Source: Mustelus asterias
Taxonomy: Eukaryota
Assembly (NCBI RefSeq): GCF_964213995.1
Contig: NC_135808.1
Span: 34,224,001 to 34,288,000, forward strand
Length of the DNA stretch: 64,000 bases
Direction of reading: 5' to 3'
Shown: positions 5,239 to 64,000 of the stretch, piece after piece
How positions within the stretch are numbered: the stretch's first letter is position 1
Layout: every line of letters starts with the position of its first letter
Translations under genes and position numbers: made by a program
Notes under the pieces: model-generated
The model's input: the letters and a program-made list of their open reading frames with translations, nothing else
Databases searched by the model: none
Told to the model about the DNA's origin: nothing

Positions 5239-5546
5239 CCCTTCATCACAAGGTGGAAATCGAGTTAGAGGCTGGAAGATTTGGGCATTATAAAGCCCGT
5301 ACAATTCTCTGAATGGCTGCACCCATAGTCCCCATTTTAAAACCAGATCAGACAGTAAGAGTTTTCGGGGATTACAAATTAGCTGTCAATAAAGGAGCTC
5401 AGATAAACAGGTGCCCCATACCCAGAATCAAAGATCTCTATGCTAAACTAGCTCGAGGTTTAAAGTGCACTAAATTGGGCCTCAGCCATACCTATCCGCA
5501 GCTGAAGTTGGAGGAGGACACGCAAAGGCTGGTGACAATAAACATG

Positions 5547-6266
5547 ATGTGGAAATGCCGGCGTTGGACTGGGGTAAACACAGTAAGAAGTCTCACAGCA
5601 CCACGTTAAAGTCCAACAGGTTTATTTGGCAGCAAAAGCCACTAGCTTTCACGTTGTCTACCTGATATGCTGCAGGAAAGGATGTCCCGAGGCATGGTAC
5701 ATTGGGGAGACCATGAGACACTACGACAACGGATGAATGAACACCGCTCGACAATCACCAGGCAAGAGTCTTCTCTTTCTGTTAGGGAACACTTCAGCAG
5801 TCACAGGCATTCGGCCTCTGATCTTCGGGTAAGCGTTCTCCAAGGCGGCCTTCACGACACACGACAACGCAGAGTCGCTGAGCAGAGACTGATAGCCAAG
5901 TTCCGCACACATGAGGACGGCCTCAACCGGGATCTTGGGTTCATGTCACACTATCTGTAACCCACACAACTTGCCTGGGCTTGCAAAATCTCACTAACTG
6001 TCCTGGCTGGAGACAATACACATCTCTTTAACCTGTGCTTAATGCTCTCTCCACTCACAATGTCTGTACCTTTGAGGCTTGATTACCTGTAAAGACTCGC
6101 ATTCCAAGCATTATTTTGTAAATTGAGTTTGTGTCTTTATATGCCCTGTTTGTGAACACATCTCCCACTCACCTGATGAAGGAGCAGCGAGCGCTCCGAA
6201 AGCTAGTGGCTTGTGCTACCAAATAAATCTGTTGGACTTCAACCTGGTGTTGTGAGACTTCTTACT
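5547..6266 (+). mobile_element. Penelope-like element, 5'-truncated (GIY-YIG end + pLTR with hammerhead), preceded by an inverted terminal segment
   Basis: WYIGE-type and RQRMNEHRS..GLNRDLGFMSHYL GIY-YIG residues. 5547-5650 is the reverse complement of the family's 3' end. Flanked by the direct repeat tgacaataaacatg (5533-5546 / 6266-6279). Confidence 0.9.
6165..6209 (+). ncRNA. Minimal type-I hammerhead ribozyme motif in Penelope pLTR
   Basis: cac-CTGATGA-a-ggagc[agcgagc]gctcc-GAAA-gcTA-gtg: catalytic boxes, paired stem II, short palindromic stem III, stem I cac/gtg. Confidence 0.75.
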
Positions 6267-6724
6267 GACAATAAACATGCACAAGGGTTTGTACCTGTAT
6301 ATAAGATTACCATTTGGAGTCTCATCAGCCTGTGCCATTTTCCAGCGCACGATGGTAAGCCTCTTGCAAGGCATCCCACTGTAATAATTTATCTGGACGA
6401 TGTACTGATCACTGGCATTTCACCTAAAAAACACAGACCCAATTTGGAAGAAGCATTGAAATGGTTTAAGGTAACAGGGGTTAGGCTGAAACGGAAGAAA
6501 TGTGCATTTCAATCAGATGAAGTTAGCTATTTAGGATTCAGGGTCGATTCAAAACCACTATATCCATTGGAAGAAAAGGTTAAAGCCATCAAGGAGGTCC
6601 CACAACCAAAAGATGCATCCGAGCTGAAATCATTTCTGGGCATGATCAACTACAATGGCAGGTTTTTAAAAAAATGTTTCTACCACTTTAGCCCCATTTC
6701 ACCAACTTAAAAAAACCCAAAAGA

Positions 6725-7954: not shown

Positions 7955-8087
7955 CACAGTAAGAAGTTTAACAACACCAGGTTAAAGTCCAACAGGTTCC
8001 CATTGGGTTAAACCTGTTGGACTTTAACCTGGTGTTGTCAAAACTCTTACTGTGTTTACCCCAGTCCAACGCCGGCATCTCCACATC
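7955..8087 (+). mobile_element. Penelope-derived fold-back mini-element (133 bp)
   Basis: ~45-bp inverted arms of the pLTR end plus a one-sided tail ...ccagtccaacgccggcatctccacatc. 14-bp TSD atcattctggagaa (7941-7954 / 8088-8101). Confidence 0.85.
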
Positions 8088-10208
8088 ATCATTCTGGAGA
8101 AACAGGACCAGTATCTTAGAAAGTTAAAGTTTGGGGTAAAACCCTAAAGAAGCACTTAGACCACCTCAGGGCCAGAGAGTCCTTGCCCGAGCTGCTCCTG
8201 GCACCGGCCAGGGAGATAGCTGCTGCCAGCCCTCAACTTGAAGCTGACTCCATGTAGGCCCCTCTGGATAGTGGGGGCACGGACTTGGAGATGGAGGCTG
8301 GAGAAGTGGGCCTCCAAGCTGAAGTGGAACCTGAGGAGAAACCTGCAACGCTCCCTCCAAACGAGAAGGTCCCCTGTTCGGTTTCCAACACCTGATACGG
8401 CCATGCCTTCGACGAACCGCTGCCCAAGTGCCAAGTGTCAGAAAGGACCTCCTCGCAGTGGGGTGCTGAGACAGCCTCAGACCTAAAAGGGAAAGGATGT
8501 TACAATGTCCACAAAGGCCACGAGGGATCATCAGTAGGTCTACCATAGGTTTTAAGGAGTATGAGTTGTCTTATTGAGTGAGTGGAAGCTTACCCAATGG
8601 GAAGCAGCCAGCAGGTGTTTTGAAGCCTGTAGCTTTACCCAGGCCAGAGTTGTGGGTCCCGGGGTGAAGACTACGTGACTGTAAGCCGCAGGAGTGGCCT
8701 TTTCCTTTGGTGCACAATGAAGGGTGTTGGTGACAGGAAACTGACGTTTGGCTGAATTACTATCTGTACCAAATGAAAAGGGTGTACCTGCGGCTTACAG
8801 TGAGACAGTCTGCACCTCGGGACCTACAACAACCAGCCCAGGTTGATCAGCAGCTTTATAAGCCCCCAATGTCTGCTTCTCATTGGGCTAGCATGCACTC
8901 GCTCAGTAAGGAAGCTTGTATTCCATAAAGTCCACAGGGAGATATATTGATGATTCCCCCCTGTTCTTTCAGCCATGCTATCATAACAGAATTCCAAGAG
9001 GAAATGAGAGAAATAGTTCACTTGTGGAGCTATGCCTTGACGAGGTCCCGAGCACTGTCCCCTGAGAGGCCAGAGCACTCTAGAGAGGCTGAACAACCCG
9101 TACAATTTCAGCAAATTCCTGCCATGTGACAGAAGACTAGAAAAAGTTCAGAGATCCCACCATTGAAAGAATCTTTCAGGAATAAGATGGTACAGAAAAG
9201 CTACCCGGATTTAAAAAGGCTGTGATTCAGCCAGAGAGGTTGAAAGGAGCCAAGACCAAGCAGCAGAAATCTGCAGTGGGGCAGAAAGCTGGAGATGATA
9301 AAGTAGCCCGAAAGGGAAATGTAGACCCCACAGGCCTCGGCTCAGAGCAGCTCGGAGGTAGCAAGCCTAAAGACAGTCCAGTAAAATCAAACCAGTTCCA
9401 CAGAAGGCCCCTAGAATCCGAAGTGGATTCTCAAAAACAACCCGAATGAATAGGGAGCAGAGAAGTCCACAAGGAGGTGAGGAATGTACTTCGCCCAGAG
9501 TCAAACCAAAAGAAGCTGGAAAGTTCTCAAATTCACCCAGAAGGACTGAGGGTGACGTTTCCTCCAGTTGATAAACCATCTGGAGATTTTTAAAAAGCTG
9601 ACCATTCCTCAGAGGGCAGTAATGTCCCAAAAGACACAGAAACCCCAACTCACCATCATTGGGATCCCCAACTATTTCAGACCCCATGCCTATCCCACTG
9701 GGTTACTGCACTGTAGCCATATCCAGTATGGATGCAGGAGAGGCCCCTGTCAGAAGGCCCTCTTCCTGTCAGCTCAGCACAGACAGATGTTCAGTCAGCT
9801 ATCACCAGAAGCTAGATCTTTCCAGCTGTGCTAGCCCCCAAAATGGGATCTCTTAAAGCAGCAAAAGGCCCTTCAAAGCCTCCCATTTTCCTGACACTTG
9901 GCCTAACCCCTGTCCCTGAGTCTACGTAACCGAACCCCCAGGTCACATAAATAAACAGGCAGTGCTAAGTGGGACAAGAGCTGCTCTTGATTCCAGCGCC
10001 TGGCACCCTCAGAGTCCCACATTCCCTGCGCATTAGCCAGAGATGTTTAACCCACACTCGACCCCTAGAAAACCCTCCTAACCATTTGAAGATACAGGAG
10101 AGTGGAATGCCTGACCCCCTGCCCCCTGCACCACCCCCCCCCTACCCCGGCCCCCTACAGAGGGGAGTGAAGTCAGACTTTTTGCACTAAATAGGCCTCC
10201 CCAGGCAG

Positions 10209-15997: not shown

Positions 15998-16145
15998 AAG
16001 TAAGAAGTCTCACAACAGGTTAAAGTCCAACAGGTTTATTTGGAATCACGAGCTTGTGCTACCAAATAAACCTGTTGGACTTTAACCTCGTGTTGTGAGA
16101 CTTCTTACTGTGCCCACCCAGTCCAACGCCGACATCTCCACATCA
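15998..16145 (+). mobile_element. Penelope-derived fold-back mini-element (~148 bp)
   Basis: Inverted arms agtaagaagtctcacaac..ttattt / aaataaac..gagacttcttact plus tail. Direct repeat tcactctgctta at 15986-15997 / 16143-16154. Confidence 0.85.
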
Positions 16146-16750: not shown

Positions 16751-18975
16751 GTGCAGCAACCGAAGAGGAAAGACTTGAATTGGACTCCTCTGGAAGGCCA
16801 CTGCCCTCGGCTTGACATGTACGCCCAAGCCGTCAGGAGGTGCATCAATGCTAGGTTCATCAGCCGCACTCACAAGACAGCCCCGAACATCACCCAAGCA
16901 CAACGCAACGCCATCCGCGCTCTCAAGACCAACCGCAACATTGTCATCAAACCAGCAGACAAAGGAGGGGCCATCATCATACTGAATAGAACGGATTACT
17001 GCAAAGAAATGTACCGACAACTGAACAACGAGGAACACTACAGACAGTTACCCGCAGATCCGACCAAAGAACACACCCGTCAACTCACCAGACTGATCAA
17101 GACCTTTGATCTGGACTTTCAGAGCACCCTCCGTGCTCTCATCCCACGTACTCCTCGGGTTGGAGATCTCTACTGCCTCCCAAAGATACACAAGGCCAAA
17201 ACACCCGGCTGTCCCATCGTATCAGGCAATGGGACCCTGTGCGAGAACCTCTGCGGCTATGTTGAGGGCATCTTGAAACCTATTGTACAAAGAACCCTCA
17301 GCTTCTGTCGTGACACTACGGACTTCTTACAGAAACTCAGCACCCATGGAGCAGTTGAACCAGGAGCACTCCTCGTCACAATGGATGTCTCAGCACTCTA
17401 CACCAGCATCCCCCACGACGACGGCATTGCTGCAACTGCCTCAGTACTCAACGCTGCCAACTGCCAATCTCCAGATGCAATTCTACAACTCATCCGCTTC
17501 ATCCTGGGCTACAACATCTTCACCTTCAACAACCAGTTCTTCATCCAGACACATGGAACAGCCATGGGGACCAAATTCGCACTTCAATATGCCAACATCT
17601 TCATGAACAGCTTCGAACAAGACCTCTTCAACCGATGCTATACACTGGATACATCGATGACATTTTCTTCCTTTGGACTCACAGCAAACAATCACTGAAA
17701 CAACTATATGATGACATCAACAAGTTCCATCCCACCATCAAACTCACCATGGACCACTCTCCAGAATCGGTTGTATTCTTGGACACACACATCTCCATCA
17801 AGGACGGTCACCTCAGCACTTCACTGTACCGCAAGCCCACGGATAACCTCACGATGTCCACTTCTCCAGCATCCACCCTAAACACATGAAAGAAGCCATC
17901 CCCTACGGACAAGCTCTCCCTATACACAGGATCTGCTCAGGTGAGGAGGATCGCAACAGATGCTGAAAGATGCCCTCATAAGAACAGGATATGGTGCTCG
18001 ACTCATTGATCGACAGTTCCGACACACCACAGCGAAAATCTGCACCGACCTTCTCAGAAGACAAACACGGGACACAGCGGACAGAGTACCCTTTGTTGTC
18101 CAGTACCTCCCCGGAGAGAAGAAGCTACGACATCTTCTCCGGAGCCTTCAACATGTCATCAATGAAGATGAACATCTTGCCAAGACCATCCCCACACCCC
18201 CACTACTTGCCTTCAAACAACCGCACAGCAACTTCAGACCATTGTCTGCAGCAAACTACCTTGCCTTCAGGAGAACAGTGACCACAACACCACACAACCC
18301 TGCCACAGTAACTTCTGCAAGACGTGCTGGATCATCGACATGGATGCCATCATCTCATGTGAGAACACCATCCACCAGGTACACGGTACATACTCTTGCA
18401 ATTCAGCCAACCTGATATGCTTCAGGAAAGGATGACCCGAGGCATGGTACATTGGGGAGACCATGCAGACGCTATGACAATGGATGAATGGACAACGCTC
18501 GACCATCACCAGGCAAGAGTGTTCCCTTCCTGTTGGGGAACACTTCAGCGGTCACGGGCATTCGGCCTCTGATCTTTGGGTAAGTGTTCTCCAAGGCGGC
18601 CTTCAAGACACACGACAACGCAGAATCGCCGAGCCGAAACTAATAGCCAAGTTCCGCACACATGAGGACGGCCTCAACCGGGATCTTGGGTTCATGTCAC
18701 ACTATCTGTAATCCTCATAACTTGCCTGGGCTTGCAAAATCTCACTAATTGGCCTGGCTTGAGACAATTCACTCCTCTTTAACCTGTGCTTAACCCTCTC
18801 TCCACTCGCATTGTCTGCACAAGACTTAATTACCTATAAAGACTCGCATTCCAACCATTATCTTGTAAATTGAGTTTGTGTCTATATATGCCCTGTTTGT
18901 GAACCAAACTCTTCACTCACCTGATGAAGGAGCGGTGCTCTGAAAGCTTGTGCTACCAAATTAATCTGGTGTTGT
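16751..18975 (+). mobile_element. Penelope-like retroelement (RT + GIY-YIG endonuclease), 5'-truncated and frameshifted, with pLTR
   Basis: IKPADKGGA, LPKIHK, MDVSALYTSIP, GTAMG, YIDDIF, FLD..I, LYRKPT, then C..C..C and YIGET..GLNRD. 3' UTR is homologous to 5960-6260. Confidence 0.95.
18914..18952 (+). ncRNA. Minimal hammerhead ribozyme motif
   Basis: cac-CTGATGA-a-ggagc[ggt]gctct-GAAA-gcTT-gtg. Confidence 0.65.
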
Positions 18976-23865: not shown

Positions 23866-23971
23866 AGATGGAGTGGAAATGTGTGACAAAGGAGCAGCGC
23901 TCTGAAAGCTTATGGTATTTGCTACCAAATAAACCTGTTGGACTTTAACCTGGTGTTGTGAGACTTCTTAC
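23866..23971 (+). mobile_element. Penelope pLTR end fragment with decayed hammerhead
   Basis: ggagcagcgctctgaaagcttatgg...gagacttcttac; same subfamily as 41982-42220. Confidence 0.75.
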
Positions 23972-23985
23972 AGTGTATATGAGCA

Positions 23986-25702: not shown

Positions 25703-25745
25703 CCCAGAAACAGCTGATGGAGGAAATCTGAATTTCTGATTGGCT
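25703..25745 (+). promoter_or_regulatory. MHC class II proximal promoter X box (CCCAGAAACAGCTG, 25703-25716) and Y box (CTGATTGG, 25736-25743)
   Basis: Fits the RFX X-box and NF-Y Y-box consensus with a 19-nt spacer, ~135 bp upstream of the ATG. Confidence 0.85.
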
Positions 25746-25877: not shown

Positions 25878-25944
25878 ATGGAAGTTGGGACATACTTTAC
25901 TGTGTTGCTGCTGGTTTTGATTCATGGAGCCTGGGCTGGAGAAT
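25878..25944 (+). CDS. MHC-IIA: MHC class II alpha chain, exon 1 (signal peptide MEVGTYFTVLLLVLIHGAWAGE)
   Basis: Kozak acaATGg, hydrophobic leader with A-W-A cleavage motif, phase-1 donor T|gtgagt that joins exon 2 in frame (T+AT = Tyr). X-Y promoter upstream. Confidence 0.88.
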
Positions 25945-28375: not shown

Positions 28376-28394
28376 CACAAAGGCCTGGATTTTC

Positions 28395-28483
28395 ACAGTA
28401 ACAAGTCTCACAACACCAGGTTAAAGTTCAACAGGTTAATTTGGTAGCACAAGCTTTCGGAACGCTGCTCCTTCATCAGGTGA
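28395..28483 (-). mobile_element. Penelope pLTR end fragment with hammerhead motif
   Basis: - strand: cac-CTGATGA-a-ggagc[agc]gttcc-GAAA-gcTT-gtg...gagacttgttactgtg. Confidence 0.75.
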
Positions 28484-36495: not shown

Positions 36496-36611
36496 TAAGA
36501 GATAACAGATAAGAGATTTTAATTATTACAGCCTTGGATCCCATTAATATATGGCTGATTAGACTGATCTTACCAATAATGTTCCCTAATTTGTCTGTAT
36601 AGTGTGTAAAA

Positions 36612-37735
36612 TGATGTGGAGATGCTGGCGTTGGACTGGCGTAAACACATTAAGAAGTCTCACAACACCAGGTTAAAGTCCAACAGGTTTATTTGGTAGC
36701 AAAAGCCACTAGCTTTCGGAGCGCTGCTCCTTCGTCAGGTAAGTGGGAGCTCTGTTCACAAACAGGGTATATAAAGACACAAACTCAATTTACAAAATAA
36801 TGGTTGGAATGCGAGTCTTTACAGGTAATCAAGTCTTAAAGGTACAGACAATGTGACTGGAGAGAGGGTTAAGCACAGGTTAAAGAGATGTGTATTGTCT
36901 CCAGCTAGGACAGTTAGTGAGATTTTGCAAGCCCGGGCAAGTCGTGGGGGTTACAGATAGTGTGGCATGAACCCAAAATCCCGGTTGAGGCCATCCTCAT
37001 GTGTGCGGAACTTGGCTATCAGTCTCTGCTCTGCGCTGTCGTGTGTCGTGAAGGCCGCCTTGGAGAACGCTTAATCGAAGATCAGAGAGTGAATGCCCGT
37101 GACCGCTGAAGTGTTCCCTAACAGGAAGAGAACAGTCTTGCCTGGTGATTGTCGAGCGGTGTTCATTCATCCGTTGTCGTAGCGTCTGCATGGTCTCCCC
37201 AATGTACCATGCCTCGGGACATCCTTTCCTGCAGCATATCAGGTCAACAACGTTGGCTGAGTTGCAAGAGTAGGTACCGTGTACCTGGTGGATGGCGTTC
37301 TCACGTGAGATGATGGCATCCGTGTTGATGATCCGGCACGTCTTGCAGAGGTTGCTGTGGCAGGGTTGTGTGGTGTCGTGGTGACTGTTCTCCTGAAGGC
37401 TGGGTAGTTTGCTGTGGACAATGGTCTGTTTGAGGTTGTGCGGTTGTTTGAAGGCAAGAAGTGGGGGTGTTGGGATGGCCTTGGCGAGATGTTCGTCTTC
37501 ATCAATGACATGTTGAAGGCTCCAGAGCAGATGTCGTAGCTTCTCCACTCCGGGGAAGGACTGGACGACGAAGGGTACTCTGTCCACCGTGTCCTGTGTT
37601 TGTCTTTTGAGGAGGTCGGTGCGGTTTTTCGCTGTGGCGCGTCGGAACTGTCGATCGATGAGTCGAGCGCCATATCCTGTTCTTATGAGGGCATCTTCCA
37701 GCGTCTGGAGGTGTCTGTTGCGATCCTCCTCATCC
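36612..37735 (-). mobile_element. Penelope-like element 3' half (GIY-YIG + complete pLTR and tail)
   Basis: ORF 36997-37749 contains C..NLCKTC, WYIGETMQTLRQRMNEH. Terminal tail tgatgtggagatgctggcgttggact at 36612. Confidence 0.92.
36706..36746 (-). ncRNA. Minimal hammerhead ribozyme motif
   Basis: - strand: tac-CTGACGA-a-ggagc[agc]gctcc-GAAA-gcTA-gtg. Confidence 0.75.
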
Positions 37736-40021: not shown

Positions 40022-43000
40022 CTTTTTTTTTCAAAAATATACTTTATTCACAAAAAAAACTCTCAAATAAGCCATTGCAAAACGACATATCTGATAAATA
40101 CAAACAGTGCAAAAATGACCAGTCATTTTTACAATACTTTACGATGCTTATTTACAAGACATTACGTTCATCACATTTCAGTAATTGAAACTATATACAT
40201 TCATTAGGTTTTACTGTGTGCTGTTGTTTTTCAGATTAGCACACGGTTACGCAGTCTGAGATTCCACACAGTTACCGGGCCCTTGGTCTGCCTCAGTTGA
40301 AAGGCTTTACACGGTGGTCTTTCCCCATTGTGCCTTTGCGGCGGCTGCCCCAAGCTTGAGCGCGTCCCTGAGCACGTAGTCCTGGACCTTGGAATGTGCC
40401 AATCTGCAACACTCGGTCGAGGACAATTCTTTCAACTGGAAGATCAGCAAGTTTCGGGCAGACCAAAGCGCGTCCTTCACCGAGTTGATGACCCTCCAGC
40501 AGCAGTTGATATTTGTCTCGGTGTGCGTCCCCGGAAACAGCCCGTAGAGCACAGAGTCCTGCGTCACCGAGCTGCCCGGGACGAACCGCGACAAATACCA
40601 CTGCATCTCATTCCAGACCTTCTTTGCAAAGACACATTCCACAAGCAGGTGTGCAACCGTCTCATCAGCCCCGCAGCCGCTTCGAGGGCAGCGTGCGGTG
40701 GTATTGAGACCTCGAGCGTGCATAAAGGATCTGACGGGACGTGCCCTTCTCATCACCAGCCAAGCCAGGTCTTGGTGCTTGTTTGTGAGTTCTGGTGATG
40801 AGGCATTCTGCCAGATGATACTGACAGTCTGCTCAGGGAACCATCCGACAGGATCCACCATCTCCTTTTCTCTCAGGGCCTCAAGGATGTTACGTGCTGA
40901 CCACTGCTTGATTGCCGTGTGGTCAAAGGTGTGTTTCTGGAAAAAGTTCTCCACGAAGGACAGGTGCTGCGGTATGGTCCAACTACTTGGAGCGTTCCGC
41001 GGCAGTGTGGCCAGACCCATCCTCCGCAACACTTGGGACAGGTAGAACCTCAAAAAGTAGTGGCACTTGCTGTTAGCGTACCGAGGATCTACACACAGCT
41101 TGATGCAGCCGCACACAAAGGTGGCCATCAGGATGAGGGCGGCGTTGGGAACGTTTTTCCCTCCGTTCTCTAGAGATTTGTGCATCGCTTCCCTCCGGAC
41201 ATGATCCATCTTTGATCTCCAGATAAATTTGAAGGTGGCCTGGGTCACTGCTGCTGCGCAGGATTTGGGGATAGGCCAGACCTGCGCCACGTACAACAAC
41301 ACGGACAGTACCTCGCATCGGATGACCAGGTTTTTTCTGGTGATAGAGAGGGAGTGTTGCTCCCACAAGCCCAATTTTTGCCTCGCTTTGGCGATGCGCT
41401 CTTCCCAGTTTTTGGCGCATGCCCTGCCGCTCCAAACCATATCCCCAGCACCTTAAGGTAGTTGCCCTGACGGTGAAGGGGACAAAGGATCTGTTAGCCC
41501 AGTTCCCAAAGAACATGGCCTCGCTCTTGCCCCGAAGCCAGCTCGAACTGCTCACAGACTTGGAGGAGCCTGCGAACAGTCGAGGGGTCCGAGCAGAAGA
41601 CAGCCACGTCATCCATGTACAGGGAAGCTCTGACCTGCATGCTTCCGCTGCCTGGGATTGTGACCCCTTTGATGCCTGGGTCGCTTCTGAGGGCCTCGGC
41701 AAAGGGTTCAATGCAACACACAAAAAGGATGAAGGAGAGTGGGCAGCCCTGCTGAAACTATCTGATTCCCACCCATTGATTGAAACTGCGCTACTGATGT
41801 CTGCGTAGAGCAGTTGGATCCAATTGTGGATTCCCTTCCCAAAGCCCATTTTGGAGAGCACATCCATCATGTAGCTGTGCGATATTCTGTCAAATGCCTT
41901 CTCCTGGTCTAGGCTGATGAGGCAGGTGTCCAACTGCCTGTCCTGCACGTAGGCGATCGTATCCCTGAGTAGCACGAGGCTTGATGTGGAGATGCCGGCG
42001 TTGGACTGGGGTAAGCACAGTAAGAAGTCTCACAACACCAGGTTAAAGTCCAACAGGTTTATTTGGTAGCAAATACCATAAGCTTTCGGGGCACAGCTCC
42101 TTCGTCAGATGGAGTGGATATCCACTCCATCTGACGAAGGAGCTGTGCTCCGAAAGCTTATGGTATTTGCTACCAAATAAACCTGTTGGACTTTAACCTG
42201 GTGTTGTGAGACTTCTTACTAGCACGAGGCTATCAGAGATCTTCCTGCCGGGTATAGCACAGGTTTGATCAGGATGGATCACTGACCCCAGAGCAGACTT
42301 GACCCAGTTGGCGATGACTCTTGCTAGAATTTTATAATCCACGTTCAATAGTGAAATGGGTCGCCAATTTCTAATTTCTTCCCTTTCCCCCTTCTGCTTG
42401 TAGATGAGGGTAATGATGCCTTTCCTCATGGATTCTGACATGCTGCGTTCCAGAAGCATACTCTCGTATACTTCCAGCAGGTCCGGGTCCACCAAGTCCC
42501 ACAACGCCGAGTAAAACTCAGCCGTTAAGCCGTCACTTCCGAGAGTTTTACCATTCTGAAAGGTCTCAACGGCCTTTGTCAGCTCATCCAGAGCTACCGG
42601 TCTGTCCAGGCTCTCCCGCTCGCCGTCATCTAAGACCTCTGTGATAGACGACAGGAAAGACTGGGAGGCCGTGCTGTCTGTTGGCTTCAGGTCACACAGT
42701 CCGGAATAGAAGGATTTGCAAATCCTCAGAATGTCAGACTGCGATGACCTTACAGAGCCATCTTCTTCCTTCAGGCTGCTGATCACAGAGGTTTCTCTGT
42801 GCACCTTTTGGAAGAAGAAATGCGAACACGTTTCGTCCTGTTCCACGGAGCGGACCCTGGACCGGAAGATAACCTTTGGAGGCCTCCGAGGCAAAGAGCG
42901 AGGCTTGCTGGCTCTTCACCTCCCGGAGATCCTCCTTGAAATCAATCCCCATCGACTGCAGTTGGAGTAGCTCCTGCATGCTTTTCTGGAGTCGGGACAT

Positions 43001-43826
43001 TTTCCCCCCATCTCTCCCTGGCCTTCTGAACCCCTTTGCAGATGAAGAACCTCTTGATGTTGTCCTTGATGTTTCCCACCAGAGCAATGGAGACTCAAAG
43101 AAGGGTTTCACGGTTCTCTAACCGTGGTAAACCCTTTTGAGTTCCTCGAGGTTCTCTGGGGTCAACAGTTCTACATTTAGCTTCCAGGACCCCCTGCCCA
43201 CTTTCTGGATTTCCTCCAGCTGACAGTCGGCCAGCAGGAGGCAGTGGTCAGAAAAGAACACCGACTTGACGTCGGTGGACCTGACCGTGAGCGCGTGGGA
43301 TACAAACATGAAGTCAATCCTGGAGCGGACAAACACGTCTGGCCGCAACCACGTGTAACTACGCTGCACTCCGTCTGCTGGGTTGCTGAAGACGTCGTGC
43401 AGCTTGGCATCTTTGACTATGTCCAGCAGGAGTCTGGATGTAGCGTCCAGTTTGTTTTCAGCCCTGCTGAATCGGCCGGCCTTGTCGATAATGCAGTTAA
43501 AATCCCCACCCAGAATGATTGGCCTGGAGGTGGTGAGCAGCAGTGGCAACTGTTCAAAAACTGCCAGCCGCTCACTCTTGACGGCAGGGGCATACACATT
43601 AATCAGCCTGTATGTGACATCTGCTACGTGGAGGCATCCTCCCACCACCTCCTTAGCTTTGGAGATGGTGAAGTTGCTTCCTCGCAGCAGAATGCCTAGG
43701 CTGGAAGAACGGCAGTTGTTCCCACCTGACCAGGTGGACAATCCGTGGGACCACACACTTGACCAATGCCTGTCACTGCTGAAGTGAGATATCCCACACT
43801 CCTGCAGGAACAGCAGGTCGGCCTTG
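40022..43826 (-). mobile_element. Tx1-group (L1 clade) LINE ORF2, 5'-truncated and frameshifted, with polyA signal and tail
   Basis: FLQE, INVYAP, GGDFN, SRIDF, FSDH (APE); GSDGL..EFY, NWRPISLLNVDYKI, LDQEKAFDR, YMDD (RT); C...CG..ET..HL..C zinc knuckle. AATAAA followed by A9 on the - strand at 40048-40023. Confidence 0.93.
41982..42220. mobile_element. Penelope-derived palindromic mini-element (239 bp) with two opposed hammerhead motifs
   Basis: 42019-42220 is a 202-bp palindrome (one mismatch) centred on GGAT|ATCC, with a 37-bp one-sided tail. TSD agcacgaggct at 41971-41981 / 42221-42231. Confidence 0.92.
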
Positions 43827-44236
43827 AGTGGTTAGAGAAGGAGCGAGGGAGGGAAATGCTAACGTGGTGTTTCGGGTTTACCACTCCTTGACACCAGATC
43901 TTCTGCTTCCCACTTCTTGGTAAATGTTGCTGGTCCGACTTCTCCCAGAATGCACCAGTGAAGTCCCTCAGCCGCTTCTACCTGAATCTCACCCCTGACT
44001 GGTACATAACCGATTGGCGGTGGAAGCTGTGAAGAGTTGGTGACCTGAGTCAGGATCATTTATTAATGAGAGGAGGGACTGTGGTCATTGTGTGAGTTTA
44101 ATCTGGTTGGTGCTCCAGCTCTGGGATGATTGTTTCAGTCGGTTTATTCCGGTTGGTTTGTTGTGTTTGATGATGTTTAAGTTTCTCTGGGTGAGGTGTT
44201 GTTAGTTTTAACCCTGTCTCTCTCTCTCACACACAG

Positions 44237-44485
44237 ATGTACACCGGAATCTCATGGTCCTGTTTGTTCAGGACGGTATTCCCGATAAACACTGGGATCT
44301 GGAGGTGGACGGGGATGAGGTTTTCTACATGGATTTCAAACTGAAGAAGGAGGTGGCGCGGATTCCCGAGTTTAACCGCTACAGAATACGGGGAGGAGAG
44401 GCGGGAATCTCAGCTCAAATCGCCATCGTGAAACAGAATTTAAATGTTTGGAAGATACTGTCGAACGGAACCGCGGAACCGAGAG
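44237..44485 (+). CDS. MHC-IIA: MHC class II alpha chain, exon 2 (alpha-1 peptide-binding domain)
   Basis: Polypyrimidine tract + cag acceptor; 249 nt; (Y)VHRNLMVLFVQDGIPDKHWDLEVDGDEVFYMDFKLKKEVARIPEF...GISAQIAIVKQNLNVWKILSNGTAEPR. DGDE.FY.D and R.PEF motifs. Phase-1 donor G|gtgagt. Confidence 0.96.
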
Positions 44486-47725: not shown

Positions 47726-50455
47726 TCAATTTCTGTCTTGAAGACGCTCAACGTCTCGGCCTCCACAGCCCTCTGTGGCAATGAATTCCACAGACCCACC
47801 ACTCTGGCTGAAGAAATTTCTCCTCATCTCTGTTCTAAAGTGACTCCCTTTTATTCTAAGGCTGTGCCCCCGCATCCTAGTCTCCCCTGTTAATGGAAAC
47901 AACTTCCCTACGTCCATCCTATCTAAGCCGTTCATTATCTTGTAAGTTTCTATCAGATCTCCCCTCAACCTCCTAAACTCCAACGAATACAATCCCACAA
48001 TCCTCAGACGTTCATCGTATGTCAGGCCTACCATTCCTGGGATCATCCGTGTGAATCTCCGCTGGACCCGCTCCAGTGCCAGTATGTCCTTCCTGAGGTG
48101 TGGGGCCCAAAATTGCTCACAGTACTCCAAATGGGGCCTAACCAGTGCTTTATAAAGCCTCAGAAGTACATCCCTGCTTTTGTATTCCAAGCCTCTTGAG
48201 ATAAATGACAACATTACATTTGCCTTCTTAATTACGGACTCAACCTGCAAGTTTACCTTTAGAGAATCCTGGACTAGGACTCCCAAGTCCCTTTGCACTT
48301 TAGCATTATGAATTTTGTCACCGTTTAGAAAATAGTCCATGCCTCTATTCTTTTTTCCAAAGTGTACGACCTCGCACTTGCCCACGTTGAATTTCATCAG
48401 CCACTTCTTGGACCACTCTCCTAAACTGTCTAAATCTTTCTGCAGCCTCCCCACCTCCTCAATACTACCTGCCCCTCCACCTATCTTTGTATCATCGGCA
48501 AACTTGGCCAGAATGCTCCCAGTCCCGTCATCTAGATCGTTAATATATAAAGAGAACAGCTGTGGCCCCAACACTGAACCCTGCGGGACACCACTTGTCA
48601 CTGGTTGCCATTCTGAGAAAGAACCTTTTATCCCAACTCTCTGCCTTCTGTCTGACAGCCAATCGTCAATCCATGTTAGTACCTTGCCTCGAATACCATG
48701 GGCCCTTATTTTACTCAGCAGTCTCCCGTGAGGCACCTTGTCAAAGGCCTTTTGGAAGTCAAGATAGATAACATCCATTGGCTCTCCTTGGTCTAACCTA
48801 TTTGTTATCTCTTCAAAGAACTCTAACAGGTTTGTCAGGCACGACCTCCCCTTACTAAATCCATGCTGACTTGTCCTAATCCGACCCTGCACTTGCAAGA
48901 ATTTAGAAATCTCATCCTTAACGATGGATTCTAGAATTTTGCCAACAACTGAGGTTAGGCTAATTGGCCTATAATTTTCCATCTTTTTTCTTGTTCCCTC
49001 CTTGAACAGTGGGGTTACAACAGCGATTTTCCAATCCTCTGGGACTTTCCCTGACTCCAGTGACTTTTGAAAGATCATAACTAACGCCTCCACTATTTCT
49101 TCAGCTATCTCCTTTAGAACTCTAGGATGTAGCCCATCTGGGCCCGGAGATTTATCAATTTTCAGACCTTTTAGTTTCTCTAGCACTTTCTCCTTTGTGA
49201 TGGCAACCATATTCAACTCTGCCCCCTGACTTTCCTGAATTGTTGGGATATTACTCATGTCTTCTACTGTGAAGACTGACGCAAAGTACTTATTAAGTTC
49301 CTCAGCTATTTCCTTGTCTCCCATCACTAGATTACCAGCGTCATTTTGGAGCGGCCCAATGTCTACTTTTGCCTCCCGTTTGTTTTTAATGTATTTAAAG
49401 AAACTTTTACTATCATTCCTAATGTTACTGGCTAGCCTACCTTCATATTTGATCCTCTCCTTCCTTATTTCTCTCTTTGTTATCCTCTGTTTGTTTTTAT
49501 AGCCTTCCCAATCTTCTGACTTCCCACTACTCTTTGCCACATTATAGGCTCTCTCTTTTGCCTTGATGCATTCCCTGACTTCCTTTGTCAGCCATGGCTG
49601 CCTAATCCCCCCTCTGATAACCTTTCTTTTGTTTGGGGTGAACCTCTGCACTGTGTCCTCAATTACTCCCAGAAACTCCTGCCATTGCTGTTCTACTGTC
49701 TTTCCCACTAGGCTCTGCTTCCAGTCGATTTTTGTCAGTTCCTCCCTCATGCGCCTGTAATTACCTTTATTTAACTGTAGAACCTTCACATCTGATTCTG
49801 CCTTCCTTCTTTCAAATTGCAGACTGAATTCTACCATATTATGATCACTGCTTCCTAAGTGTTCCCTTACTTTAAGATCTTTTATCACGTCTGGCTCATT
49901 ACATAACACTAAGTCCAGAATAGCCTGTTCCCTCGTGGGCTCCATCACAAGCTGTTCCAAAAAGCCATCCTGTAAACATTCAATGAATTCCCTTTCTTTG
50001 GGTCCACTGGCAACATTATTTACCCAGTCCACCTGCATATTGAAATCCCCCATGATCACTGTGACCTTGCCTTTCTGACATGCCCTTTCTATTTCGTGGT
50101 GCATTTTGTGTCCCTGGTCCTGACCACTGTCAGGAGGCCTGTACATAACTCCCATTATGGTTTTTTTGCCTTTGTGGTTCCTCAACTCTACCCACACAGA
50201 CTCCACATCGTCTGACCCTATGTCGTTTAGTGCTATTGATTTAATTTCATTTCTAATTAACAAGGCAACCCCGCCCCCTCTACCCACCTCTCTGTCTTTT
50301 CGATAGGTTGTGAATCCCTGGATGTTTAACTGCCAGTCCTGAACCCCCTGCAACCACGTCTCTGTGATGCCTACCACATCATACCTGCCAGTCACAATCT
50401 GGGCCACAAGCTCATCTACCTTGTTCCGGACACTGCGGGCATTTAAATATAGCAC
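47726..50455 (-). CDS. CR1 ORF2p (APE endonuclease + reverse transcriptase), 909 aa; frameshift in the last ~35 codons
   Basis: YLNARS, ITETWL, YRPP, GDFN, SDHN, KFADD. After FFSQ the frame departs from the RVV.LWN.LP consensus seen in the other copies. Confidence 0.9.
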   Translation of the reverse strand: MLYLNARSVRNKVDELVAQIVTGRYDVVGITETWLQGVQDWQLNIQGFTTYRKDREVGRGGGVALLIRNEIKSIALNDIGSDDVESVWVELRNHKGKKTIMGVMYRPPDSGQDQGHKMHHEIERACQKGKVTVIMGDFNMQVDWVNNVASGPKEREFIECLQDGFLEQLVMEPTREQAILDLVLCNEPDVIKDLKVREHLGSSDHNMVEFSLQFERRKAESDVKVLQLNKGNYRRMREELTKIDWKQSLVGKTVEQQWQEFLGVIEDTVQRFTPNKRKVIRGGIRQPWLTKEVRECIKAKERAYNVAKSSGKSEDWEGYKNKQRITKREIRKERIKYEGRLASNIRNDSKSFFKYIKNKREAKVDIGPLQNDAGNLVMGDKEIAEELNKYFASVFTVEDMSNIPTIQESQGAELNMVAITKEKVLEKLKGLKIDKSPGPDGLHPRVLKEIAEEIVEALVMIFQKSLESGKVPEDWKIAVVTPLFKEGTRKKMENYRPISLTSVVGKILESIVKDEISKFLQVQGRIRTSQHGFSKGRSCLTNLLEFFEEITNRLDQGEPMDVIYLDFQKAFDKVPHGRLLSKIRAHGIRGKVLTWIDDWLSDRRQRVGIKGSFSEWQPVTSGVPQGSVLGPQLFSLYINDLDDGTGSILAKFADDTKIGGGAGSIEEVGRLQKDLDSLGEWSKKWLMKFNVGKCEVVHFGKKNRGMDYFLNGDKIHNAKVQRDLGVLVQDSLKVNLQVESVIKKANVMLSFISRGLEYKSRDVLLRLYKALVRPHLEYCEQFWAPHLRKDILALERVQRRFTRMIPGMVGLTYDERLRIVGLYSLEFRRLRGDLIETYKIMNGLDRMDVGKLFPLTGETRMRGHSLRIKGSHFRTEMRRNFFSQSGGSVEFIATEGCGGRDVERLQDRN

Positions 50456-50671
50456 CTTTAATTCCCTATTGACCGTCCCTTTTTGTTTTCGTAGTGTGGT
50501 GGACCTTGGTTTACTGAGCCTTTCCAGACACTGTCATATTTTGTGAGATGGGGACTATCGTAACCTCCCCTGAGTGCTGTCTTTTCGTGATTTTTTGTAA
50601 TCCTAAGCAGCTACGCTTCCCACTGATTCCTTCACCTCTTGGTTCCCTGACTTTCCCTTCCCCCCCAATCT

Positions 50672-63841: not shown

Positions 63842-64000
63842 AGTAAGAAGTTTAACAACACCAGGTTAAAGTCCAACAGGTTTATTTGGTAGCAAAAGCC
63901 ACACAAGTTTTCGAGGCTCTAAGCCCCTTCTTCAGGTGAGTGGGAATTCTGTTCATAAACAGAACTTATAAAGACACAGACTCAATTTACATGAATAATG
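63842..64000 (-). mobile_element. Penelope pLTR end (runs off the window) with a variant hammerhead at 63902-63943
   Basis: - strand: cac-CTGAAGA-a-ggggc[ttaga]gcctc-GAAA-acTT-gtg, then the family terminus ...cttcttact. Confidence 0.8.

Follow-up and report, generated by a model that had tools for sequence, protein, structure and literature searches.

What is the 239-bp hairpin that interrupts a retrotransposon inside an MHC class II alpha intron, and how was it made? The hairpin occupies positions 41982 to 42220 of the window, the whole 64,000-nucleotide stretch of Mustelus asterias DNA that was analyzed. The original prediction left two origins side by side: a product of Penelope integration, or a non-autonomous, retrozyme- or MITE-like unit mobilized in trans.

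A loopless palindrome with a one-sided tail

The palindrome spans 202 bp (42019 to 42220) without a loop. Its two 101-nt arms, one tail bearing (42019 to 42119, minus strand) and one tail-less (42120 to 42220, plus strand), meet in GATATC (42117 to 42122), a strandless, self-complementary hexamer that is native to the parent pLTR, and a 37-bp tail extends from one side only (41982 to 42018, minus strand). The arms differ at a single position, 42090. This mismatch is private to the window copy, being absent or unlisted in 29 of 29 other loci compared (those giving a variant list or a length), and the equivalent base is symmetric in all 27 other copies of equal length. The insertion is flanked by an exact 11-bp duplication, AGCACGAGGCT. 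The preceding T is common to the duplication and the arm end, and therefore a 12-bp reading, which fits the rule for the family, is equally valid; the duplications then lie at 41970 to 41981 (11 bp if the first T is assigned to the element) and 42220 to 42231, both on the plus strand. Removal of the element and one duplication restored a continuous minus-strand frame, that of an RT (Pfam RVT_1). The predicted coordinates, single mismatch, tail, 11-bp duplication and clean insertion into the RT frame were thus all reproduced, as was the position between exons 1 and 2 of the MHC class II alpha gene. The hairpin also recurs in a manner not due to chance: the best 40 of 903 candidates were all full-length copies with 98 to 100% identity.

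The arms and tail derive from the pLTR of an abundant Penelope-like family

An exact 22-mer from the arm had 33,574 matches genome-wide. The arm maps to the 3' portion of a Penelope-like element (PLE) pLTR, whose 3' end forms the tail and stops one base before the parent ORF start codon. The closest comparison was with a long locus of the same lineage, L281, to which the tail-bearing arm plus tail was 98.6% identical and the tail-less arm, which ends at the second end site of the family, 99.0% identical. Intact ORFs of 892 aa, encoding RT, a C-x4-C-x2-C linker and GIY-YIG, were present in two of the four long loci retrieved from the window's lineage and carried the window's arm haplotype. The parent thus has the single ORF of EN+ Penelope elements, with RT and, at the C terminus, a GIY-YIG endonuclease with CCHH. 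Its pLTRs are partially tandem and/or inverted with an optional tail (L281, L282, L280; 147 pairs), and they carry the motif and stems I and II of the minimal type-I hammerhead as described in PMC4209133. A CX2-5CxxC linker between RT and EN is given in PMC8557442 as the Neptune/Nematis signature, and on the linker found in L281 we assign the parent to the Neptune type. L281 (C5:55073500-55083000) and L282 (C68:7229500-7239000), both with intact ORFs, are candidate active sources.

The layout of the stub was found at 4 to 5 kb in L281 and L282, as an inverted copy with a one-sided tail and a target-site duplication (TSD). There were also 147 head-to-head pairs with spacers of 2 to 1378 nt, and 1,545 palindromes with 0- to 30-nt spacers, heterogeneous junctions and many other centres. 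Among the common forms of the known insertion composed of inverted pLTR, tail and TSD, the window element is the shortest. Inverted-pLTR insertions of EN+ PLEs (Pen2a_Av and others, PMC3846280; PMC8557442; D. virilis form C, PMC2377424) share with it, as far as the available text of those reports describes them, head-to-head pLTR ends, a TSD, a one-sided tail (30 to 40 bp in theirs), a palindrome at the inverted junction and a pLTR hammerhead. The stub differs in its reduction to 138 + 101 nt, without an ORF, and in the recurrence of one junction 242 times. Hence the first of the two predicted origins, a product of Penelope integration, was borne out by arms and a tail that come from the end of a pLTR belonging to an abundant family that has intact parents, and the window insertion is a young, dead-end stub of already known architecture.

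One palindrome centre recurs at a junction hotspot

The original prediction had allowed that every copy might have a different fold-back point. Instead, the exact 18-nt centre of the window copy was found at 242 loci, compared with 0 for the control, and it formed the commonest single class among the 1,545 palindromes (4 of the first 50). Such recurrence is what recommends the second predicted origin, in which the 239-bp hairpin is itself a non-autonomous retrozyme- or MITE-like unit whose transcript the Penelope protein would re-insert intact; the uniformly full-length best 40 hits add to its appeal. The centre was, however, polyphyletic. In the 67 of the 242 loci analyzed, it was spread over six concordant parent haplotype groups (24, 12, 12, 6, 5 and 1 loci) together with mixed arms, rather than descending as one unit with inherited private variants. 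Nor was the window's lineage enriched for it: fold-centre arms made up 4 of the first 100 (1,736 total) in that lineage and 10 of the first 100 (4,258 total) in the sister lineages (P = 0.16), corresponding to approximately 4 to 10% of GATATC-bearing arms. The count for the window's lineage takes in parents reading ACAGATAT; a pattern without them gave approximately 59 of the first 100, an apparent enrichment that we rejected as an artefact of the missing parents.

Variation within the copies told the same way against descent as a unit. Among 31 lineage copies, 42 one-arm changes were counted in 6,138 sites, such that the arms differ by 0.7%, and no non-CpG one-arm variant was common to more than 2 of the 31, a comparison to which 42 changes lend low power; a mirrored variant was common to 6 of the 31. 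The termini were not fixed, as the tail-less ends ranged from 50 to 110 (mostly 100 to 104) and the tail ends varied by 0 to 6 or more nt. A full-length source with a short palindrome at its 5' end was sought among the 26 lineage loci bearing an ORF start, of which one, L270, had the ATAT centre and ends after 4 codons; the centre was absent from all 4 lineage loci with ORFs open for 504 aa.

MITEs, like the stub, are short and non-coding, with inverted repeats, a TSD and many near-identical copies. The stub differs from them in its asymmetric tail, ragged microhomology ends, retroelement parent and lack of a transposase partner. Non-LTR retrozymes (PMC7229834; bioRxiv 10.64898/2026.07.22.740005) are, in the available text, likewise non-coding units with a type-I hammerhead and a PLE pLTR origin, and the derivation of retrozymes from PLEs reported in the latter and the ability of PLE pLTRs to mobilize sequence in trans (PMC3846280) both lend the unit reading some plausibility. 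Retrozymes are described there as head-to-tail tandem units whose hammerheads can dimerize and give circles, whereas the stub is a head-to-head, single insertion with a TSD, in which tandem head-to-tail units are absent and the one sense hammerhead per strand is buried in the predicted hairpin. It also has none of the sequence past its tail that the PLE studied in PMC11167929 is reported to need; without ORF-start sequence downstream of its tail, the stub would not serve as a template. Given the polyphyletic centres, the small lineage share and the continuum of centres, we consider mobilization of the hairpin as a unit very improbable, and the self-replicating reading is already largely refuted.

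What does account for the shared centre is the position of the arm ends. In 50 of 98 arms, the 5' end lay 4 to 6 nt upstream of CCACTCC, against 16% under a flat null (49 of the first 50 junctions, with 8 arms scored 0 for a lineage missing from the variant list), and the same peak was present in lineages without GATATC. These data suggest that the template has a preferred 5' end at this point, most likely a putative transcription start, in line with the fit of CCACTCC to the Inr consensus. An internal promoter with an Inr has been described for D. virilis Penelope (PMC2377424). In parents with GATATC at this point, two cDNA ends would overlap by 6 self-complementary bases and yield an identical loopless product; in other parents the junctions are ragged. 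We therefore attribute the recurrence of the centre to the piling up of ends 4 to 6 nt upstream of CCACTCC in parents that carry GATATC there, and the genome-wide search for centres and TSDs that had been proposed led to a junction hotspot spanning six haplotype groups.

The persistence of the end peak in lineages without GATATC also bears on whether the palindromes formed once the elements were in place, with longer inverted Penelope copies recombining or undergoing deletion between them and collapsing on GATATC. Long inverted copies are common in this genome and long palindromes are unstable, but the junctions hold untemplated and snap-back inserts and the arms differ by so little that this route is scarcely credible. 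Two further candidates for the centre were considered. A hammerhead cut was ruled out for the window copy, in which the cut lies 40 nt away, and for a splice acceptor (CAG before ATAT) no common upstream exon was found in the junction inserts. At one locus, L026 (C4:116763779-116764198), a same-centre palindrome is duplicated 177 bp away.

The second arm is better explained by priming on both strands than by fold-back

We consider it probable (approximately 0.72) that a Neptune-type Penelope element left the window element as a minimal, head-to-head, dead-end insertion, likely made by two priming events, one per nicked strand. Each nicked target strand would prime cDNA synthesis on the start of the element RNA at the landing site. 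The alternative is that the tail-primed cDNA reached the RNA 5' end, snapped back at GATATC, copied itself to the arm/tail boundary and joined the second nick; the product would still be a de novo, dead-end Penelope product. Self-priming of this kind has been proposed for Adineta Penelope palindromes (PMC3846280), and the loopless centre on a native palindrome suits it.

Arm lengths and arm haplotypes bear most directly on the choice. Long pairs with spacers of at least 40 nt and an assignable tail numbered 48, leaving aside 8 ambiguous ones. A TSD of at least 9 bp bounded 35 of the 48, and in these the tail arm was longer in 13, the tail-less arm was longer in 12 and the two were within 5 nt of each other in 10, of which 3 were complex junctions. 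There was thus no bias toward the tail arm, and, as the tail-less arm can be the longer in simple TSD-bounded pairs, simple fold-back is insufficient unless a one-sided central deletion intervened. At the 67 same-centre loci, the arms were concordant in 60, as fold-back would have it, and discordant in 7. The discordant set is partly selected (L159, L221 and L222 were fetched as single matches); in L151 and L159, the arms match two different lineage haplotypes at 2 to 3 or more sites, which under fold-back could reflect later gene conversion. Equal lengths in 10 of the 35 pairs are in keeping with fold-back, and several junctions hold short snap-back copies, indicating that hairpin priming occurs locally. 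The tail-less ends, mostly at 100 to 104, do not lie 2 nt 5' of a CAG on the strand whose cutting fold-back would require. Because either arm can be longer and some arms differ in haplotype, we favour priming on both strands and regard fold-back as unlikely. The equal-length cases and the general concordance of arms suggest that both primers would usually copy the same RNA. L282, whose two tandem pLTRs differ in loop-II haplotype, was rejected as proof of twin priming, as both its arms end at an identical parent base, which fits either model. An origin of the tail-less end by endonuclease cutting of the element's own CTG was also discarded, the register misfitting most ends. Near-equal long arms (L285, L294, L296, L170 and L284) occur far more often than independent truncation would give.

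In L1 twin priming, both target nicks prime cDNA on one RNA and the products are joined by microhomology, and the second primer lands at random internal sites, giving a 5' inversion. In the stub, by contrast, the two starts lie close to one 3' point and the product is a head-to-head duplicate. The scheme agrees with the in vitro results for Poseidon of Anolis (PAc), as given in the available text of PMC11167929. There, both target strands are cut and extended, two internal RT start sites flank the tail, the protein is predicted to form a dimer, the ORF's first 172 nt are required and insertion does not depend on hammerhead cleavage. The Mustelus family shares with PAc the use of both strands and the two internal end sites that bracket the tail. 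The PAc account does not, in that text, address inverted products.

The family inserts at a symmetric target motif

Rebuilt empty sites had TSDs of mostly 12 to 13 bp (72 of 113). In this comparison, which covers only sites with a recognizable TSD, the bipartite motif CTG-N16/17-CAG was exact in 56 of 114 sites, compared with 1 and 0 of 114 in shifted-window controls and a mean of 0.5 in shuffles, and at least 5 of its 6 positions matched at the best register in 99 of 114. The motif was retained after similar sites were collapsed (44 of 96) and was found in short and long insertions alike (41 of 80 and 15 of 34). Forty-five loci of a second set provided 32 sites with a TSD, of which 14 had the exact motif, with 0 and 0 in the controls. 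With both sets pooled, 70 of 146 rebuilt sites were exact, and thus approximately half lack a perfect motif. The window's own site fits, with the left half-site CTG at 41965 to 41967, the right half-site CAG at 42234 to 42236, both on the plus strand, and an empty-site spacer of 16 nt. The geometry of the TSD within the motif implies a putative nick 2 nt 5' of the CAG on each strand, and the landing-site motif likely reflects how the element's enzyme cuts. In the flanks of L029, L017, L023, L026, L031, L051 and L070, several independent insertions lie at the same positions of other repeats (CR1/L2-like), which is consistent with sequence-directed targeting.

The shape of the stub was already known; the symmetric target site is the new element of this analysis. 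A narrow 12- to 13-bp TSD within such a motif is absent from the available descriptions of the EN+ PLE insertions cited above, and a search of the open-access literature, excluding supplements, found no relevant report of twin priming or a target motif in PLEs. The dimer predicted for PAc fits the symmetric site of the Mustelus family. PAc itself, as described in the available text of PMC11167929, favours AT-rich ATT sites and initiates within the ORF, whereas the Mustelus family combines a linker of the Neptune type with an end immediately before the start codon and a bipartite, C/G-anchored site.

Hammerhead motifs and the ends of the template

The original prediction placed a hammerhead on each strand. 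On the plus strand, the minimal type-I motif was exact (42127 to 42163), with a predicted cut at 42159/42160 that follows the CUU triplet; the minus-strand copy (42076 to 42112) carries the private 42090 mismatch in stem II, and its presence is a by-product of the palindrome. In the proposed check against covariance models the motif was not scored: an Rfam scan of the element returned no hammerhead match at an E value of ≤10 and only generic hairpin (miRNA) models below the gathering score. Folding predictions gave pair probabilities of approximately 0.92 for stem II and 0.5 for stem I in a single arm, but 0.000 for both stems in the full hairpin on either strand. On both strands, transcription reaches the antisense arm first. 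Because both motifs are sequestered in the predicted hairpin and the antisense arm precedes them, the stub is unlikely to cleave.

Cleavage of the parent RNA is a separate matter. A second class of shorter palindromes, L307 to L351, has arms ending at the predicted hammerhead cut, and 294 palindromes were joined near this site. In 45 of the first 50 of these, 31 of 90 arms ended within 1 nt of the cut, against 13 to 15% under a flat null, and both arms did so in 12 of 45 (P = 0.035 under a null of full correlation), counts made with a pattern that sees only ends not downstream of the cut. These ends hint at cleavage of the parent RNA in vivo. Minimal PLE hammerheads are reported to cleave weakly in vitro (PMC4209133), and the Anolis RNA sequencing in the available text of PMC11167929 had no reads ending at the hammerhead site, which counts against such cleavage.

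We give even odds to a combined proposal in which a dimeric GIY-YIG/RT reads the bipartite palindromic CTG-N16/17-CAG, introduces a nick 2 nt 5' of each CAG and begins two cDNAs simultaneously, such that stub junctions record the 5' ends of germ line templates, one at the transcription start and the other at the hammerhead cut. If true, this would define a recognition site for a Neptune-type endonuclease for the first time, explain the inverted repeats and tails of PLEs and show hammerhead cleavage in vivo. The origin of these repeats and tails and the role of the hammerhead are stated to be open in PMC8557442, and the family offers a natural experiment on all three. The symmetric motif and the two 5'-end clusters, with intact parent ORFs, define exactly which substrates and predictions can be taken to the in vitro system already in use. 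The interest therefore lies in these family-level clues to mechanism, chiefly the symmetric target site, and not in the stub.

The host locus

The MHC class II alpha gene occupies 25703 to 55340 on the plus strand of the window, with an X-Y-box-like sequence near 25703 that we take to be its promoter. The coding part of exon 1 (leader) extends from the ATG at 25878 to 25944 and exon 2 from 44237 to 44485 (PF00993 match, 44257 to 44478), both on the plus strand, leaving an 18-kb intron 1. The interrupted element, a non-LTR retrotransposon with endonuclease and RT labelled Tx1-like in the original prediction, lies within this intron at 40307 to 43831 on the minus strand. A paralogue 270 kb away (exon 2 at C8:34542280) is 93 to 94% identical at exons 1 and 2 and showed zero alignment over 37.7 to 44.0 kb of the window; hence, the host element and the stub appear to be specific to the window's paralogue. 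The stub itself is ordinary and probably neutral in this large intron, and the MHC pre-mRNA may carry the predicted long double-stranded RNA hairpin. The window also contains at least eight other pieces of Penelope elements from older subfamilies, several of them head to head (5544-6267, 7955-8089, 15999-16145, 16756-18949, 23884-23975, 28394-28482, 36611-37735 and 63842-64000). MHC intron 2 contains a 935-aa open endonuclease and RT frame on the minus strand (47726 to 50533), presumably that of a CR1-like element.
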